A stretch of DNA of 64,000 nucleotides from Escherichia coli (lineage in GTDB: Bacteria; Pseudomonadota; Gammaproteobacteria; Enterobacterales; Enterobacteriaceae). The notes under the pieces are model-generated. The model saw only the letters and a program-made list of their open reading frames with translations, did no database searches and was not told the DNA's origin. The stretch lies in NCBI RefSeq assembly GCF_009931435.1, contig NZ_CP043414.1. One strand, 5' to 3'. Of the stretch, positions 1 through 12,180 are shown in pieces (the stretch's first letter is position 1; every line of letters starts with the position of its first letter). Position numbers and translations under genes: made by a program.

Positions 1-1
1 C

Positions 2-457
2 GAGCTGAAAAAACTGATGCCAAACGTCGCGGCGTTTAACTCCGATAACCCAGCTAACCCGTATATGGAAGGCGAAGTTAACCTCGGCATGATCTGGAAC
101 GGTTCTGCTTTCGTTGCACGCCAGGCGGGTACGCCAATTGACGTGGTGTGGCCGAAAGAAGGCGGCATTTTCTGGATGGACAGTCTGGCAATTCCGGCAA
201 ATGCCAAAAACAAAGAAGGCGCGCTGAAATTGATTAACTTCCTGCTGCGCCCGGATGTGGCAAAACAGGTTGCTGAAACTATCGGTTATCCAACGCCAAA
301 CCTCGCCGCGCGTAAGCTGTTAAGCCCGGAAATAGCGAACGATAAAACGCTCTACCCGGATGCTGAAACCATTAAAAATGGCGAATGGCAGAATGACGTT
401 GGCGCAGCCAGCAGCATTTATGAAGAGTATTATCAGAAGCTGAAAGCAGGACGTTAA
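2..457 (+). CDS. potD: Spermidine/putrescine ABC transporter periplasmic binding protein, C-terminal part (5' end outside window)
   Basis: Frame is open from the window edge; translation ends ...IYEEYYQKLKAGR, matching the PotD C-terminus as recalled; followed by an intrinsic terminator. Confidence 0.9.
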   Translation, partial: ELKKLMPNVAAFNSDNPANPYMEGEVNLGMIWNGSAFVARQAGTPIDVVWPKEGGIFWMDSLAIPANAKNKEGALKLINFLLRPDVAKQVAETIGYPTPNLAARKLLSPEIANDKTLYPDAETIKNGEWQNDVGAASSIYEEYYQKLKAGR

Positions 458-465
458 TTCAGCAA

Positions 466-498
466 GCGGGCGGTGGTATTACCGCCCGTTTTTTATTT
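466..498 (+). terminator. Rho-independent terminator downstream of potD
   Basis: GC-rich inverted repeat cgggcggt / accgcccg followed directly by a T-run (ttttttattt). Confidence 0.7.
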
Positions 499-560
499 AG
501 CAAGGATGTGGCTAATGTTGCTGTTATGGACGAGTAAACGCTAAAAGAGGCAGTAAATAT

Positions 561-656
561 GCCAGATGCGGCGTCAACGCCTTCTCTGGTCTACGACACC
601 CGGAAATTCAATTCATTGCGCCCCATCGCAGGCCTGATAAGCGTAGCGCATCAGGC
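561..656. repeat. REP/BIME element (two palindromic units) between potD and cobB
   Basis: gccagatgcggcgtcaacgcc...ctac and gcctgataagcgtagcgcatcaggc match the E. coli REP palindromic-unit consensus. Confidence 0.7.
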
Positions 657-669
657 CATTACTCCTGAT

Positions 670-1491
670 TTATAATCCTTTCAGCAATTTCTCAACAAAC
701 TCTGGTACCACCTGGCTTGCCGGGCCGTAATATTTCTCGGCAAATTCATTACCGACCTGACTCGGTTCAAGATTGAGTTCGACAGTGTGCGCACCATGCA
801 GTTTCGCTTCGTGAACAAACCCAGCCGCCGGATAAACATGCCCTGATGTACCAATGGCAATGAAAATATCGGCCATCGACAACGCCATATAAATTTCATC
901 CATGCCGAGTGGCATTTCGCCAAACCAAACGACGTGCGGGCGCAAGGGTGCCGGGAACTGGCAACAATGGCATTTATCGTCTGACGTAACGTCTCCGGTC
1001 CAGTCGAGAATCTGACCACTTTGCGAACAACGTACTTTCAGCAATTCCCCATGCATATGAATCACATTGGTATTACCTGCGCGTTCGTGCAGATTGTCGA
1101 TATTCTGCGTCACCAGCAAAAAGCGATCGCCGAGAGCATCTTGCAGTTTAGCCAGCGCAAGATGCGCGGCGTTAGGCTGAATTTCTGGCTGCTGCAGCTG
1201 TCGACGGCGGGCGTTATAAAACGCTTGTACCAGTTCAGGATCGCGATCGAAACCTTCCGGCGTTGCCACATCTTCAACCCGATGTTCTTCCCACAGGCCA
1301 TCTGCGGCGCGAAAGGTACGAATACCTGATTCCGCAGAAATACCTGCCCCAGTCAGTACGAGTACTCTTGGTTTTTCCATTGCTTCCGGCACCACTTTAT
1401 CTCTGAAAAAAATACGCTGACGCAAACGCTCGCGCAGGCGGCGTTTATTTTTACGAAAACGACTTAACCGATGACCCCGACGCGACAGCAT
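670..1491 (-). CDS. cobB: NAD-dependent protein deacylase (sirtuin) CobB
   Basis: 273-aa [21 protein letters not shown]...[19 protein letters not shown] with sirtuin motifs; about 6 aa shorter at the C-terminus than the K-12 protein I recall. Confidence 0.9.
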
Positions 1492-1506
1492 AGCAACCTC
1501 TGTTGT

Positions 1507-2418
1507 TTACTCGGTTAGATGTAGGAAAGCCGCACCACGCATTCCTCCCGCATCACCGTGGCGCGCGCGTTCAATGCGCGGAACACGAGCTACAGGTAAG
1601 AGATGACGAGGCAGCCTGTCCGCCAGTTGCGTTGTGATTGCCGGGAAATTCGATAAGCCACCACCAATGACGACCAGGTCAGGGTCAACAATGGTCAGGA
1701 TATTTCCCAGACAAACCGCTAATAAATCCAGATAACGCTCAACGTGCGCCCTTGCCTGCTCATCGCCTTGATCATAAAGCGCAATAATTTCGGGAGCCTG
1801 CAACGGTTGATGATAATAGTGTTGATACAGCCACGCAAAACCGCGACCAGACAGATAATTTTCAATGCAGCCATGCTGACCACAGCCGCAGCGGCGTAAC
1901 GGGAAATCCAGCCCCATCATGGTTAACGCATCAACCGGCAGACGCATATGGCCAAACTCGCCGGTAATATAGCTTTTACCGGTAATTGGTTTACCGTTGA
2001 AAATCAGCCCGCCGCCAACGCCGGTGCCGAGAATCAACCCCATCACCAGTGGATATTGAGTAAATTCATCATCCCAGGCTTCTGAAAGGGCAAAACAGTT
2101 GGCATCGTTATCAAGGCGGACATCGCGATCAAGACGTGCGCTCAGATCTGCACGCAGCGATTTACCGCTGGCAGCGGGGACATTGGCGGCATACAGCGTA
2201 CCATCTTCTGTTTCCGGCATTCCCGGAATACCGATGCCGACAGAACCTTTACAGCCAAAACGTTGGTCAGCTTCGGCTACCAGCTCGCACACTGCATCTA
2301 AAAATGCGTCATAGCTGTCACGCGGTGTCGGCACCCGCTTTTCCCACTGCAACTGCCGACCGCTATCAAACACGCCAAGCGCAATTTTTGTTCCACCAAT
2401 ATCAAACCCGTAATACAT
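1507..2418 (-). CDS. nagK: N-acetyl-D-glucosamine kinase
   Basis: ROK-family kinase; start placed at the internal ATG ([17 protein letters not shown]) giving 303 aa; the track ORF extends 20 codons upstream. Confidence 0.9.
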
Positions 2419-2446
2419 TGCCGCTCCTTGTTTTAATGTACTGCCT

Positions 2447-5704
<3,258 letters not shown>

Positions 5705-5846
5705 CTAAATTGCCATGTTTTATCATCAATCTTGCCGCCTGATCTTAATCTGAAAAATCATCCAATACAGACAGATACCCATTACACCTCGGGTCATAAC
5801 CCGCAGGATCAACCGCATGTAAATTAAAAAAGAGCGTGTTGTCCTG

Positions 5847-6920
5847 ATGAAACAAAAAGAGCTATGGATTAACCAGATCAAAGGGTTATGTATTTGTCTT
5901 GTAGTGATTTATCACTCGGTCATTACCTTTTATCCGCATCTGACCACTTTTCAGCATCCGTTATCGGAAGTCCTGAGCAAATGCTGGATCTATTTCAATC
6001 TTTACCTTGCCCCCTTTCGTATGCCGGTTTTTTTCTTTATTTCTGGCTATTTGATTCGCCGCTATATCGATAGCGTGCCATGGGGAAATTGTCTCGATAA
6101 ACGCATCTGGAGCATCTTCTGGGTGCTGGCACTTTGGGGCGTAGTGCAGTGGCTGGCGATAAGTGCACTAAATCAGTGGCTGGCACCTGAGCGCAATTTA
6201 AGTAATGCCTCCAATGCCGCTTATGCCGATTCTACCGATGAGTTCCTGCACGGAATGATCACCGCCAGCACCAGCTTGTGGTATCTGTATGCTTTAATTG
6301 TCTATTTCGTGATATGTAAAATTTTTAACCGCCTGGCCCTGCCGTTATTTGTTCTGTTTGTACTGATGAGTGTGGCGGTTAATTTCGTACCCACACCGTG
6401 GTGGGGAATGAACAGTGTGATCCGCAATTTGCCTTATTACAGCCTTGGCGCATGGTTTGGCGCAACATTAATGACCTGTGTTAAAGAGGTGCCGTTGCGC
6501 CGCCATCTGCTGATGGCTTCTTTGCTGGCTGTTCTGGCGGTCGGTGCCTGGTTGTTTACTATCTCGCTGCTGTTGTCGCTGGTATCGATTGTGGTGATCA
6601 TGAAACTGTTTTATCAGTACGAGCAACGTTTCGGTATGCGCCCCACCAGCCTGCTGAATGTGATTGGCTCCAACACCATTGCTATCTACACCACCCATCG
6701 CATACTGGTAGAAATATTCAGCTTAAGCCTGATTCCGCAAATGAACGCGGCACGCTGGTCGCCGCAAGTCGAACTGACGCTCCTGCTGGTTTACCCCTTT
6801 GTCAGTTTGTTGATTTGTACTGTTGCGGGCTTGCTGGTAAGAAAACTTTCACAGCGCGCATTCAGCGATCTGTTGTTCTCCCCGCCTTCTCTGCCCGCTG
6901 CCGTCAGTTACTCCCGCTAA
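5847..6920 (+). CDS. ycfT: Inner-membrane acyltransferase-3 family protein YcfT
   Basis: 357-aa very hydrophobic multi-TM ORF at the position expected between lolC and mfd. Confidence 0.85.
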   Translation: MKQKELWINQIKGLCICLVVIYHSVITFYPHLTTFQHPLSEVLSKCWIYFNLYLAPFRMPVFFFISGYLIRRYIDSVPWGNCLDKRIWSIFWVLALWGVVQWLAISALNQWLAPERNLSNASNAAYADSTDEFLHGMITASTSLWYLYALIVYFVICKIFNRLALPLFVLFVLMSVAVNFVPTPWWGMNSVIRNLPYYSLGAWFGATLMTCVKEVPLRRHLLMASLLAVLAVGAWLFTISLLLSLVSIVVIMKLFYQYEQRFGMRPTSLLNVIGSNTIAIYTTHRILVEIFSLSLIPQMNAARWSPQVELTLLLVYPFVSLLICTVAGLLVRKLSQRAFSDLLFSPPSLPAAVSYSR

Positions 6921-7047
6921 GCCATCGCCCCAGCCGGGGCGATTCAATTTGCTAAACCATGTCGATTACGGATAATGAACAGCATTGCTTATCAGAGATA
7001 TGCCCCCATATGTTGAGGCATATCCTAACGAGAATCTGACAACCGTT

Positions 7048-10000
7048 ATGCCTGAACAATATCGTTATACGCTGCCCGTCAAAGCGGGTGAGCAGCGTCT
7101 GCTGGGCGAGTTAACTGGCGCTGCCTGCGCGACGCTGGTAGCGGAAATTGCCGAACGTCACGCCGGTCCGGTGGTACTTATTGCACCAGATATGCAAAAT
7201 GCCCTGCGTTTGCATGATGAAATCAGCCAGTTTACCGATCAGATGGTGATGAATCTGGCGGACTGGGAAACCCTTCCCTACGACAGTTTTTCGCCTCATC
7301 AGGACATTATCTCCTCACGCCTTTCCACTCTTTACCAGCTACCAACGATGCAGCGTGGCGTACTGATTGTTCCGGTGAATACGCTTATGCAGCGCGTTTG
7401 CCCGCACAGTTTCCTCCACGGCCACGCGCTGATGATGAAAAAAGGTCAGCGGTTATCTCGTGATGCCTTACGTACGCAACTGGACAGTGCCGGTTATCGC
7501 CATGTTGACCAGGTTATGGAGCACGGCGAATACGCCACGCGCGGCGCGTTGCTGGATCTTTTCCCGATGGGCAGCGACTTGCCTTATCGTCTTGATTTTT
7601 TTGATGATGAAATCGATAGCCTGCGCGTATTTGACGTTGACAGCCAGCGTACGCTGGAGGAAGTAGAAGCCATCAATCTGCTGCCCGCGCACGAATTTCC
7701 GACAGATAAAGCGGCAATTGAACTGTTCCGCAGCCAGTGGCGCGATACCTTCGAAGTGAAGCGCGACCCGGAACATATTTATCAGCAAGTGAGTAAAGGC
7801 ACATTACCTGCCGGGATCGAGTACTGGCAGCCGCTATTCTTCAGCGAACCGCTGCCGCCACTGTTCAGTTATTTCCCTGCCAATACGCTGTTGGTGAATA
7901 CTGGCGATCTGGAAAACAGTGCCGAACGTTTCCAGGCTGACACGCTGGCGCGTTTTGAAAATCGCGGCGTCGATCCGATGCGTCCACTGTTGCCACCACA
8001 ATCGCTCTGGCTGCGGGTAGACGAGCTCTTTTCAGAGCTAAAAAACTGGCCGCGTGTGCAGCTAAAAACTGAACATTTACCGACAAAAGCAGCGAATGCC
8101 AATTTAGGTTTCCAGAAGCTGCCAGACCTGGCCGTTCAGGCACAACAAAAAGCGCCGCTGGATGCGCTGCGTAAGTTCCTCGAGTCTTTCGACGGTCCGG
8201 TGGTGTTCTCGGTAGAAAGTGAAGGTCGCCGTGAAGCGCTGGGTGAACTGCTCGCGCGAATTAAAATTGCTCCTCAACGCATTATGCGTCTTGATGAAGC
8301 CAACGACCGTGGGCGTTATCTGATGATTGGCGCTGCCGAACATGGTTTTGTCGATACGGTACGTAATCTGGCGCTGATTTGCGAAAGCGATCTGCTCGGT
8401 GAACGCGTTGCCCGTCGTCGTCAGGATTCTCGCCGCGCCATCAACCCCGATACACTGATCCGTAACCTTGCGGAGCTGCATATTGGTCAGCCGGTGGTCC
8501 ATCTGGAGCACGGCGTCGGGCGCTATGCAGGAATGACCACGCTGGAAGCGGGCGGCATTACTGGCGAGTACCTGATGCTCACCTATGCCAACGACGCCAA
8601 ACTGTATGTTCCGGTGTCATCACTGCATCTGATTAGCCGTTACGCCGGTGGCGCGGAAGAAAACGCCCCGCTGCATAAACTTGGCGGTGATGCGTGGTCG
8701 CGGGCGCGGCAGAAAGCGGCGGAAAAAGTGCGTGATGTGGCGGCGGAATTGCTGGATATCTACGCGCAACGCGCCGCCAAAGAGGGCTTCGCGTTTAAAC
8801 ACGATCGTGAACAATATCAATTGTTCTGCGACAGCTTCCCGTTTGAAACCACGCCGGATCAGGCGCAAGCCATTAATGCAGTGCTTAGCGATATGTGTCA
8901 GCCGCTGGCGATGGATCGTCTGGTGTGCGGTGATGTTGGCTTTGGTAAAACTGAAGTCGCGATGCGCGCCGCGTTCCTGGCGGTAGATAACCACAAGCAG
9001 GTGGCGGTGCTGGTGCCTACCACCCTTCTCGCGCAGCAGCATTACGACAACTTCCGCGACCGTTTCGCCAACTGGCCGGTACGCATCGAAATGATCTCCC
9101 GTTTCCGCAGCGCCAAAGAGCAGACGCAAATCCTTGCGGAAGTGGCGGAAGGGAAAATCGATATTCTGATCGGTACGCACAAACTGCTGCAAAATGACGT
9201 CAAGTTTAAAGATTTAGGTCTGCTGATTGTCGATGAAGAACACCGCTTCGGGGTGCGTCATAAAGAGCGCATCAAAGCGATGCGGGCGAACGTGGATATT
9301 CTGACACTTACCGCAACGCCGATCCCACGTACGCTGAATATGGCAATGAGCGGAATGCGCGATCTGTCGATTATCGCTACGCCGCCTGCCCGTCGTCTGG
9401 CAGTTAAAACCTTTGTCCGTGAGTATGACAGTCTGGTGGTCCGGGAGGCGATCCTGCGTGAAATTTTGCGCGGGGGACAGGTTTATTATCTCTACAATGA
9501 TGTGGAAAACATCCAGAAAGCTGCCGAACGACTGGCGGAGCTGGTGCCAGAGGCGCGGATCGCCATCGGTCACGGGCAGATGCGCGAGCGCGAACTGGAA
9601 CGGGTGATGAATGATTTCCATCATCAACGTTTCAACGTGCTGGTTTGTACCACCATTATCGAAACCGGGATCGATATCCCGACTGCCAACACCATTATCA
9701 TCGAGCGGGCGGATCACTTCGGTCTGGCGCAGCTGCATCAGTTGCGCGGTCGCGTCGGACGTTCGCATCATCAGGCATATGCATGGCTGCTGACGCCGCA
9801 TCCAAAAGCGATGACTACCGATGCGCAAAAACGTCTTGAAGCGATTGCCTCGCTGGAAGATCTCGGTGCAGGTTTTGCGCTGGCAACGCACGATCTGGAG
9901 ATTCGCGGCGCGGGTGAACTGCTTGGCGAAGAACAAAGCGGCTCAATGGAAACTATCGGTTTCTCGCTGTATATGGAGTTGCTGGAAAACGCCGTCGATG

Positions 10001-10494
10001 CGCTGAAAGCCGGACGCGAGCCGTCGCTGGAAGATCTCACTAGCCAGCAAACGGAAGTCGAGCTGCGGATGCCGTCGCTATTACCAGATGATTTCATTCC
10101 TGACGTGAATACGCGTTTGTCGTTCTATAAACGTATTGCCAGCGCCAAAACGGAAAACGAACTGGAAGAGATCAAAGTCGAGCTTATCGATCGCTTCGGC
10201 CTGCTGCCGGATCCGGCGCGTACCCTGCTGGATATTGCCCGTCTGCGTCAGCAAGCGCAGAAACTGGGGATCAGGAAGCTGGAAGGTAATGAGAAAGGTG
10301 GGGTGATCGAATTTGCCGAGAAGAATCACGTTAATCCGGCCTGGTTGATTGGTTTGCTGCAAAAACAGCCACAGCATTACCGCCTTGATGGTCCGACGCG
10401 CCTGAAGTTTATTCAGGATTTGAGCGAGCGGAAAACGCGTATCGAATGGATTCGCCAGTTTATGCGTGAACTGGAAGAGAACGCGATCGCTTAA
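7048..10494 (+). CDS. mfd: Transcription-repair coupling factor Mfd
   Basis: Start at internal ATG (MPEQYRYTLPVKAGEQ) gives 1148 aa; superfamily-2 helicase motifs GDVGFGKTEVA and DEEHRFGV. Confidence 0.93.
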   Translation: MPEQYRYTLPVKAGEQRLLGELTGAACATLVAEIAERHAGPVVLIAPDMQNALRLHDEISQFTDQMVMNLADWETLPYDSFSPHQDIISSRLSTLYQLPTMQRGVLIVPVNTLMQRVCPHSFLHGHALMMKKGQRLSRDALRTQLDSAGYRHVDQVMEHGEYATRGALLDLFPMGSDLPYRLDFFDDEIDSLRVFDVDSQRTLEEVEAINLLPAHEFPTDKAAIELFRSQWRDTFEVKRDPEHIYQQVSKGTLPAGIEYWQPLFFSEPLPPLFSYFPANTLLVNTGDLENSAERFQADTLARFENRGVDPMRPLLPPQSLWLRVDELFSELKNWPRVQLKTEHLPTKAANANLGFQKLPDLAVQAQQKAPLDALRKFLESFDGPVVFSVESEGRREALGELLARIKIAPQRIMRLDEANDRGRYLMIGAAEHGFVDTVRNLALICESDLLGERVARRRQDSRRAINPDTLIRNLAELHIGQPVVHLEHGVGRYAGMTTLEAGGITGEYLMLTYANDAKLYVPVSSLHLISRYAGGAEENAPLHKLGGDAWSRARQKAAEKVRDVAAELLDIYAQRAAKEGFAFKHDREQYQLFCDSFPFETTPDQAQAINAVLSDMCQPLAMDRLVCGDVGFGKTEVAMRAAFLAVDNHKQVAVLVPTTLLAQQHYDNFRDRFANWPVRIEMISRFRSAKEQTQILAEVAEGKIDILIGTHKLLQNDVKFKDLGLLIVDEEHRFGVRHKERIKAMRANVDILTLTATPIPRTLNMAMSGMRDLSIIATPPARRLAVKTFVREYDSLVVREAILREILRGGQVYYLYNDVENIQKAAERLAELVPEARIAIGHGQMRERELERVMNDFHHQRFNVLVCTTIIETGIDIPTANTIIIERADHFGLAQLHQLRGRVGRSHHQAYAWLLTPHPKAMTTDAQKRLEAIASLEDLGAGFALATHDLEIRGAGELLGEEQSGSMETIGFSLYMELLENAVDALKAGREPSLEDLTSQQTEVELRMPSLLPDDFIPDVNTRLSFYKRIASAKTENELEEIKVELIDRFGLLPDPARTLLDIARLRQQAQKLGIRKLEGNEKGGVIEFAEKNHVNPAWLIGLLQKQPQHYRLDGPTRLKFIQDLSERKTRIEWIRQFMRELEENAIA

Positions 10495-10637
10495 TGGTAA
10501 ATCGGGGGCGTTTCTGCGCCCCCATATCCAACATTTACAAATTATTTGCACTTCCCTGCACTATCCGACACTGTCACCATCCATAATTCAGGCTTATCTG
10601 TTTATTACAATAACCTTATATTTATTATGGATTTTTG

Positions 10638-11600
10638 GTGATGATCAAAACGCGTTTTTCTCGCTGGCTAACGTTTTTTACGTTCGCCGCTGCCGTGGCG
10701 CTGGCGCTACCGGTAAAAGCCAACACCTGGCCGCTGCCGCCAGCAGGCAGTCGTCTGGTTGGCGAAAACAAATTTCATGTGGTGGAAAATGACGGTGGTT
10801 CTCTGGAAGCCATCGCCAAAAAATATAATGTCGGCTTTCTCGCTCTGTTACAGGCCAACCCCGGCGTTGATCCTTACGTGCCGCGCGCGGGTAGCGTGTT
10901 AACGATCCCGTTGCAAACCCTACTTCCAGATGCGCCGCGCGAAGGCATTGTGATCAATATTGCGGAACTGCGTCTCTATTACTACCCGCCGGGTAAAAAT
11001 TCGGTAACCGTGTATCCCATCGGCATTGGTCAGTTGGGTGGTGACACGCTGACACCGACAATGGTGACCACCGTTTCTGACAAGCGTGCAAACCCAACCT
11101 GGACGCCAACGGCAAACATTCGCGCGCGGTATAAGGCACAGGGAATTGAGTTGCCTGCGGTAGTTCCGGCTGGACCGGATAACCCAATGGGCCATCATGC
11201 GATTCGTCTGGCGGCCTATGGCGGTGTTTATTTGCTTCACGGTACGAACGCCGATTTCGGCATTGGCATGCGGGTAAGTTCTGGCTGTATTCGTCTGCGG
11301 GATGACGATATCAAAACACTCTTTAGCCAGGTCACCCCAGGTACCAAAGTGAATATCATCAACACCCCGATTAAAGTCTCTGCCGAACCAGACGGTGCGC
11401 GTCTGGTTGAAGTACATCAACCGCTGTCAGAGAAGATTGATGACGATCCGCAGCTGCTGCCAATTACACTGAATAGCGCAATGCAATCATTTAAAGATGC
11501 AGCGCAAACTGACGCTGAAGTGATGCAGCATGTGATGGATGTCCGTTCCGGGATGCCGGTGGATGTCCGCCGTCATCAAGTGAGCCCACAAACTTTGTAA
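10638..11600 (+). CDS. ldtC: L,D-transpeptidase LdtC (YcfS)
   Basis: Signal peptide, LysM-like N-terminal region and YkuD catalytic motif HGTN...SSGCIRL; start at GTG 10638 (320 aa) or ATG 10641. Confidence 0.88.
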   Translation: MMIKTRFSRWLTFFTFAAAVALALPVKANTWPLPPAGSRLVGENKFHVVENDGGSLEAIAKKYNVGFLALLQANPGVDPYVPRAGSVLTIPLQTLLPDAPREGIVINIAELRLYYYPPGKNSVTVYPIGIGQLGGDTLTPTMVTTVSDKRANPTWTPTANIRARYKAQGIELPAVVPAGPDNPMGHHAIRLAAYGGVYLLHGTNADFGIGMRVSSGCIRLRDDDIKTLFSQVTPGTKVNIINTPIKVSAEPDGARLVEVHQPLSEKIDDDPQLLPITLNSAMQSFKDAAQTDAEVMQHVMDVRSGMPVDVRRHQVSPQTL

Positions 11601-11611
11601 ATCCTGGATAA

Positions 11612-11650
11612 AAAAATCCCCGCGACACGGCATGTCGCGGGGAAAAAAAT
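11612..11650 (-). terminator. Intrinsic terminator for bhsA in the convergent ldtC/bhsA gap
   Basis: Hairpin ccccgcgacacggcatgtcgcgggg flanked by A7 on both sides of the + strand, giving a U-run after the hairpin on the minus transcript. Confidence 0.6.
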
Positions 11651-11682
11651 CAGCAGTAGCAGGCATTAATGAGGGTTAATGC

Positions 11683-11940
11683 TTATTTATAAATTACTGC
11701 TGTTCCATGGAGGGTATTCGGACCGGTTACAGAAGTAATACGGAAAGATTTTGCGCCCATCTCATCCGCTTTTTGCGCCAGCTGCTCTTCCAGCGATCCC
11801 AGATTTGTCCCCGCGTTAGCACTGATAGTACCGACTTTTTGTTGGCCTTCTGGCGTTGACTGAACTTCGACAGCCGCAAAGCTGGCAAATGACATTGAGC
11901 TTAAAATCGCCGCAGCGATGAGGGTTTTTACGTTTTTCAT
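11683..11940 (-). CDS. bhsA: Multiple stress resistance / biofilm protein BhsA (YcfR)
   Basis: 85-aa secreted YhcN/BhsA-family ORF MKNVKTLIAAAILSSMSFASFA... Confidence 0.88.
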   Translation of the reverse strand: MKNVKTLIAAAILSSMSFASFAAVEVQSTPEGQQKVGTISANAGTNLGSLEEQLAQKADEMGAKSFRITSVTGPNTLHGTAVIYK

Positions 11941-12180
11941 AATAGTGGCCTTATGCAGATGAATGACGTCGCAAGCAATTACTTAACGATCGATAACTAA
12001 ATGATAGATGTGATCTGGATCACATACAAGATATTTTTTATAACAATCATTAATTAATTTAAAAATCTTTAAATTTCAGTTAAATAGAAAGCAATTATTT
12101 TTATGGTTTGTGGACTGGTGAACGGAGGTGATTATTTTTATAATAACCTTTCATTCACAGTCACCAGGTACAACGGCATC
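11941..12180. promoter_or_regulatory. Divergent bhsA/comR promoter region (expected ComR operator)
   Basis: 240-bp AT-rich intergenic region between divergent bhsA and comR; the operator itself is not pinpointed. Confidence 0.4.

Follow-up and report, generated by a model that had tools for sequence, protein, structure and literature searches.

Does the cobB gene of this Escherichia coli strain end early, or does the gene of the reference strain K-12 end late? The window analysed here (the whole stretch of 64,000 nucleotides from contig NZ_CP043414.1) carries cobB on the minus strand, and the gene ends a few nucleotides short of a REP element. An earlier note on this DNA, made from the sequence, had described an early TAA and an adjacent frame that runs on into the REP, and it offered a genuine strain variant or a sequencing error as the explanation. 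The features at this end of the gene are listed below.

670 to 1491, minus strand: cobB coding sequence, long isoform CobB-L, 273 aa, NAD+-dependent sirtuin deacylase (ORF list).
1378 to 1380, minus strand: internal ATG (Met38, in the sequence ...PEAM38EKPRV), putative start of the short isoform CobB-S, 236 aa.
670 to 672, minus strand: TAA stop codon immediately following Leu273; K-12 lacks the T at 672 (ORF, alignment).
658 to 669, minus strand: 12-nt spacer ATCAGGAGTAAT that separates the stop codon from the REP stem; it is untranslated here, and its homologue in K-12 is codons 274-278.
651 to 653, minus strand: TGA within the 5' arm of the REP stem; it closes the +1 frame here and is the actual cobB stop in K-12-type genomes.

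The translated ORF ends in EKLLKGL and is followed by TAA. The minus strand at this point reads GGA TTA TAA ATC AGG AGT AAT GGC CTG ATG CGC; both the ORF and this reading bear out the stop at 670-672 and the length of 273 aa. In the +1 frame the same letters are GAT TAT AAA TCA GGA GTA ATG GCC TGA, or D-Y-K-S-G-V-M-A-stop, and the minus-strand reading likewise agrees with the note's adjacent frame YKSGVMA, whose TGA at 651-653 is embedded in the REP. The note had also put the long isoform of K-12 at 279 aa with the ending KGLKAGSIA, which is what the annotated cobB translation of K-12 DHB4 (locus L001; 840 nt, 279 aa) gives; the exact K-12 protein is named NPD_ECOLI in the protein collection. 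Pairwise alignment of the 3' ends (window GGATTATAAATCAGGAGTAATGGCCTGA, K-12 GGATTA-AAAGCGGGAAGCATTGCCTGA) yielded one single-base indel, the T of TAA, plus several substitutions, as the note had proposed. Without that T, K-12 reads AAA GCG GGA AGC ATT GCC up to the TGA that lies in the REP's 5' arm. The alternative frame of the window is the unused homologue of the K-12 extension. K-12 CobB (UniProt NPD_ECOLI, RefSeq WP_000952737.1, 279 aa) shares with the window the nagK-cobB synteny, the Sir2 domain, the N-terminal extension of 37 residues and Met38; it differs in the missing T of TAA, the added KAGSIA and a stop codon (TGA) that lies within the REP, and the window differs in having no ycfZ-ymfA downstream.

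Next, we asked whether the extra T is real. If it were a sequencing or assembly error, a spurious base would have made a false TAA and truncated a 279-aa CobB, and what speaks for this is the expectation set by the 279 aa of K-12. Three assemblies (OZ038830.1, CP041520.1 and ABAKVB010000002.1), retrieved via an exact match to the NagK of the window (the product of the neighbouring gene), match the window at 99.8% identity across 4.9 kb, show 0 differences from it in cobB and share its 54-nt 3' end exactly; two of them are complete chromosomes. The exact 273-aa CobB of the window (P0002) was seen on 186 contigs. The T sits outside any homopolymer run (TTATAAAT), and at least 3370 of the complete E. 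coli genomes have it, as do all outgroups examined. We concluded that the base is not a sequencing error, because three independent assemblies have identical DNA and the exact protein occurs on 186 contigs; an error has next to no probability. Of the two explanations offered by the note, the genuine variant stood and the error fell away.

The substitutions around the stop codon form a dense patch. Against the closest complete genome, N96 (98.5% identity over 12 kb), there are 9 mismatches in the 45 nt at 647-691. With a background mismatch rate of 1.48% against N96, the Poisson probability is about 4e-8 per 45-nt interval, or about 5e-4 after multiplication by approximately 12,000 interval positions. 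The changes in the coding part are synonymous (GAG/GAA, AAA/AAG and GGA/GGC), and the five changes after the stop are non-coding. The patch, in a 54-nt probe (646-699), has 3 and 4 mismatches against two non-coli Escherichia species representatives (L023 and L024) and 8-9 mismatches against E. coli. Such a divergent patch fits ordinary recombination or retained old polymorphism, and is not specific to cobB. Gene conversion from another REP copy was considered as the source of the post-stop substitutions and was rejected, as no donor copy was found in 5426 complete E. coli genomes, and a search within the window gave no second copy of the 54-nt 3' end. Clusters of 7-11 substitutions per 45 nt against N96 were seen at 647-691, 2234-2278, 7606-7650, 9508-9552 and 11443-11487, and short clusters of this kind resemble the mosaic left by recombination on a fine scale.

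Among 5426 complete E. coli genomes, the best identity to the window was 98.5% for positions 1-12000 and 99.0% for positions 25000-49000, and none of these genomes contained any 28-mer of the 54-nt 3' end of the window. Judged from these comparisons, the source is a poorly represented E. coli lineage, because there is no closer complete genome and no match to the 54-nt cobB 3' end in that set; its near-identical relatives are OZ038830.1, CP041520.1 and ABAKVB010000002.1. A Shigella origin was rejected: the window has no IS-type repeats of 200 nt or more, and its NagK and CobB are labelled E. coli or Escherichia.

To count the two forms of the gene end, the same 5426 complete E. coli genomes were searched with megablast probes in such a way that every 28-nt seed must span the indel. 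The allele counts were as follows.

K-12-type deletion: 1708 genomes (31%), 1697 of them at 99% or higher identity to the probe.
T present, main probe: 3280 genomes (60%), with 1837 at 99% or higher, 328 at 95-99% and 1115 at 90-95% identity.
T present, third haplotype (IMT16316 type): 90 genomes (2%), all at 99% or higher identity.
Assigned to neither allele by this seed-based counting: 348 genomes (6%).

The stop codon therefore follows KGL directly in at least 3370 of the 5426 complete E. coli genomes (about 62%). Individual examples are Z0117EC0005, N96, RIVM_C037791, IMT16316 and E138, together with the E. coli loci L002-L010, L017, L018 and L020. RefSeq already holds both alleles, with WP_000952736.1, WP_000952729.1 and WP_000952746.1 at 273 aa and WP_000952737.1 at 279 aa; the three shorter proteins, which end in KGL and occur in many E. 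coli, are reference CobB sequences of just the kind that the note had named as evidence against its reading. The common 273-aa CobB of E. coli (WP_000952736.1; P0001, present in 64,878 collection blocks) has the same length as the window protein, the same KGL-TAA and a stop 12-13 nt upstream of the same REP. The window differs from it by three amino-acid and 24-26 synonymous changes and by a divergent 22 nt after the stop.

The same position of the stop was found outside E. coli: in two assemblies of E. albertii (L011 and L022), in E. whittamii (L025), in Escherichia sp. MOD1-EC7003 (L028), in two further GTDB species representatives labelled E. coli (L023 and L024), and in Citrobacter amalonaticus (CTG TGA) and C. 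portucalensis (CTG TAA); the outgroup comparison at DNA level covers these Escherichia and Citrobacter assemblies. PMC10965786 (citing Tucker and Escalante-Semerena 2010) gives CobB isoforms of 273 and 236 aa for Salmonella and other Enterobacteriaceae. These lengths of Salmonella enterica CobB-L and CobB-S, as given there, equal those predicted here from Met1 and Met38. The Salmonella protein is an orthologue from another genus and is compared by isoform lengths, with both starts in the present strain being predicted ones.

These data also bear on the polarity of the change. The lineage of the window could instead have gained a T, and with it a premature stop that removed a functional, ancestral KAGSIA tail. 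The K-12 reference strain does have the longer form, as do 31% of the complete E. coli genomes. Against such a truncation, all outgroups examined (five non-coli Escherichia species representatives, the second E. albertii assembly and two Citrobacter) stop after KGL, and PMC10965786 puts Salmonella CobB-L at 273 aa. The deletion allele is moreover nearly monomorphic (1697 of 1708 genomes at 99% or higher identity) while the T allele is diverse, as expected of a young deletion. We consider a derived truncation very unlikely. The window very probably carries the ancestral, majority cobB allele, and the 279 aa of K-12 would be a derived stop-loss form: the 273-aa form is taken as ancestral because the outgroups share it, most E. 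coli genomes have it and the T allele is the more diverse one, and the deletion allele as derived because it has almost no sequence diversity. On the same grounds the 279-aa form appears to be a young derivative. The word 'early' for the TAA of the window had the polarity the wrong way round, since outgroups and most E. coli stop directly after KGL. We found no statement in the accessible literature that K-12 cobB is the derived state.

With the 273-aa form as ancestor, the following course of events can be proposed. In the window, translation of CobB would end at the TAA after EKLLKGL and yield the canonical enterobacterial long isoform of 273 aa, and a start at Met38 would yield the short isoform of 236 aa (273-37, computed from Met38); this start is probably used in the present strain. 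The K-12 lineage would have lost the T of TAA (TTATAAA to TTAAAA), after which its ribosomes would translate six codons that had been non-coding (KAGSIA) and terminate at the TGA within the REP stem to give 279 aa. The indel, its polarity, its frequency among genomes and its recurrence in separate assemblies are the parts of this account that the data show. As a further step we infer that the six-residue K-12 tail has no functional effect: it is located far past the Sir2 domain, and in genomes that do not translate it the sequence is free to drift. The +1-frame tail varies in genomes in which it is untranslated (KSGVMA, KSGVIA, KAGVIA, KAGKIS and KAGKIA), and the spacer at 658-669 of the window departs from the common E. 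coli sequence by 5 substitutions.

That variation is relevant to one further possibility, namely that a programmed +1 frameshift at UUA-UAA-A yields a minor 279-aa product from the 273-aa allele. A shift at the stop would give a K-12-like tail, and an SD-like AAGGA is found just upstream. The tRNA-Leu that decodes UUA cannot re-pair at UAU, where it would meet two mismatches; the shifted-frame tail is not conserved among lineages, and the Citrobacter sequence after the stop is unrelated. The SD-like element here has no spacer, and in the arrangement of the prfB frameshift site the SD-like element does have one. Frameshifting was rejected because UUA cannot re-pair as UAU and the product is not conserved, and we regard it as extremely improbable. 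The preferred account remains loss of the stop codon in the K-12 lineage.

We examined whether the 273-aa protein is a complete sirtuin. The Pfam SIR2 family (PF02146) matched residues 48-221 with E=5.5e-54 and 183.3 bits (cut-off 24), over the full profile (1-180), and the domain ends at residue 221 in both alleles. H147, C155, C174 and C177 are all present; PMC10965786 assigns positions 147, 155 and 174 to the active site and the Zn site. Orthology with K-12 cobB is indicated by 270 of 273 identical residues and by the gene order lolE-nagK-cobB-potD, which is that of annotated E. coli genomes. The three substitutions relative to K-12 are V161I, P170S and E171D. All three (encoded at about 979-1011, minus strand) fall between the zinc-binding Cys155 and Cys174, in the small zinc module, and P170S and E171D are also found in N96. 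The window CobB can be described from its sequence as an intact sirtuin with an unchanged catalytic core. The crystal-structure chain of 1S5P comprises K-12 residues 40-274, and a 273-aa Salmonella CobB is reported to be active (PMC10965786). The intact domain, the Salmonella protein and the end of the 1S5P chain together suggest that the 273-aa form would be active as a deacetylase.

The DNA beyond the stop codon belongs to the spacer between cobB and the convergent potD gene, and the features in it are as follows.

628 to 657, minus strand: REP element 1, hairpin GGCCTGAT-GCGCTACGCTT-ATCAGGCC with a TGC tail (MFE and centroid folds).
559 to 594, plus strand: REP element 2, inverted relative to REP element 1 and pairing as a second hairpin (fold, consensus likeness).
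517 to 522, no strand: empty site where K-12 has about 1.2 kb with ycfZ-ymfA (break in the BLAST alignment, equal to 1891 and 3113 of L001).
464 to 494, plus strand: intrinsic terminator of the convergent potD, a 12-bp stem and then a T-run (potD ends at 457).

The palindrome GGCCTGATGCGCTACGCTTATCAGGCC at 631-657, which contains the TGA at 651-653, is the hairpin of REP element 1. The hairpin GGCCUGAUG.GC...GC.CAUCAGGCC appeared in both the MFE and the centroid folds, and the 161-nt region has a z-score of -2.68. The REP motif CTTATCMGGCCTRC occurs in 5 copies in the window, with 0.05 expected. REP element 2 resembles the EcoCyc REP consensus quoted in PMC12306157. REP element 1, the linker and REP element 2 (559-657) make up a BIME-like pair that fills the convergent cobB-potD spacer. 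The pair is like other REP and BIME sequences of E. coli, which are imperfect palindromes with the consensus tail CTTATCAGGCCTRC, occur as dispersed copies, lie between convergent genes and combine two inverted units. In the window the REP sequence at 559-657 is wholly extragenic, with the cobB stop (670) on one side of it and the potD stop (457) on the other; in K-12-type genomes, by contrast, the REP is not strictly extragenic and holds the cobB stop codon inside its 5' arm. A search of the cobB strand gave no intrinsic terminator.

Two side observations concern the repeats themselves. Positions 520-591 on the minus strand resemble the Rfam family naRNA4/CssrE, a REP-derived nucleoid-associated RNA, below the threshold (26.8 bits against a gathering score of 59.5, E=0.007). 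This similarity is consistent with a REP/BIME spacer and would not be evidence of that RNA. An ORF of 38 aa on the plus strand (559-675) passes through both REPs, overlaps the cobB stop on the opposite strand and is a called gene in L014 (4244-4360), where REP sequence has almost certainly been mistaken for a gene.

The spacer also differs from that of K-12 by the ycfZ-ymfA pair, and we considered whether the cobB 3' difference could be the junction of that indel. This was rejected: the junction (517-522) is about 150 nt away. The two polymorphisms are independent, as strain EcPNK006 has the 279-aa form without ycfZ and L003 has the 273-aa form with ycfZ. The ycfZ-ymfA pair is present in many 273-aa strains and in E. 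albertii. In strain E138 an IS1 interrupts ycfZ. L007/L008 and EcPNK006 are all without ycfZ-ymfA, as is the window, but with a different junction sequence, which suggests more than one deletion event.

REPs located less than 16 nt from a stop codon stall ribosomes and down-regulate translation, according to PMC12306157, which summarises Liang, Rudd and Deutscher 2015. Where the stop lies with respect to the REP could set differing CobB levels in the two allele classes through REP-dependent ribosome stalling. The spacer of 12 nt (658-669) is under the 16-nt limit described in PMC12306157, and the REP hairpin is predicted to be stable. Against a difference of this kind, both alleles lie within the same rule, which would predict no difference between them, and cobB was not found in the RepRanger supplements of PMC12306157 that were examined. 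We consider such a regulatory effect unlikely. Because both alleles satisfy the distance rule, cobB is a candidate for REP control in either form. The regulatory reading is compatible with the stop-loss history and is not a replacement for it. In a more specific version, the single-base difference has moved the stop from 12-13 nt upstream of the hairpin (about 62% of genomes) into the hairpin's 5' arm (about 31%), and if REP-dependent stalling depends on this geometry, the allele classes would differ in the amount of CobB; this version seems a little less probable still. CobB is the main lysine deacetylase of the cell, and if the dosage reading were true, acetylation data obtained in K-12 could not be carried over quantitatively to most E. 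coli.

The window holds the known canonical form of a known gene, and the repeat beside it is of a known type; the finding, though real, is an ordinary one and matters little. It offers a small clarification: the K-12 reference would be the derived allele, a six-residue stop-loss extension into the REP that is carried by about one third of complete E. coli genomes. An annotation of truncation or frameshift would be wrong for a 273-aa CobB that ends in KGL, and the natural pair of alleles may serve as a ready comparison for CobB dosage or REP-linked translational control.
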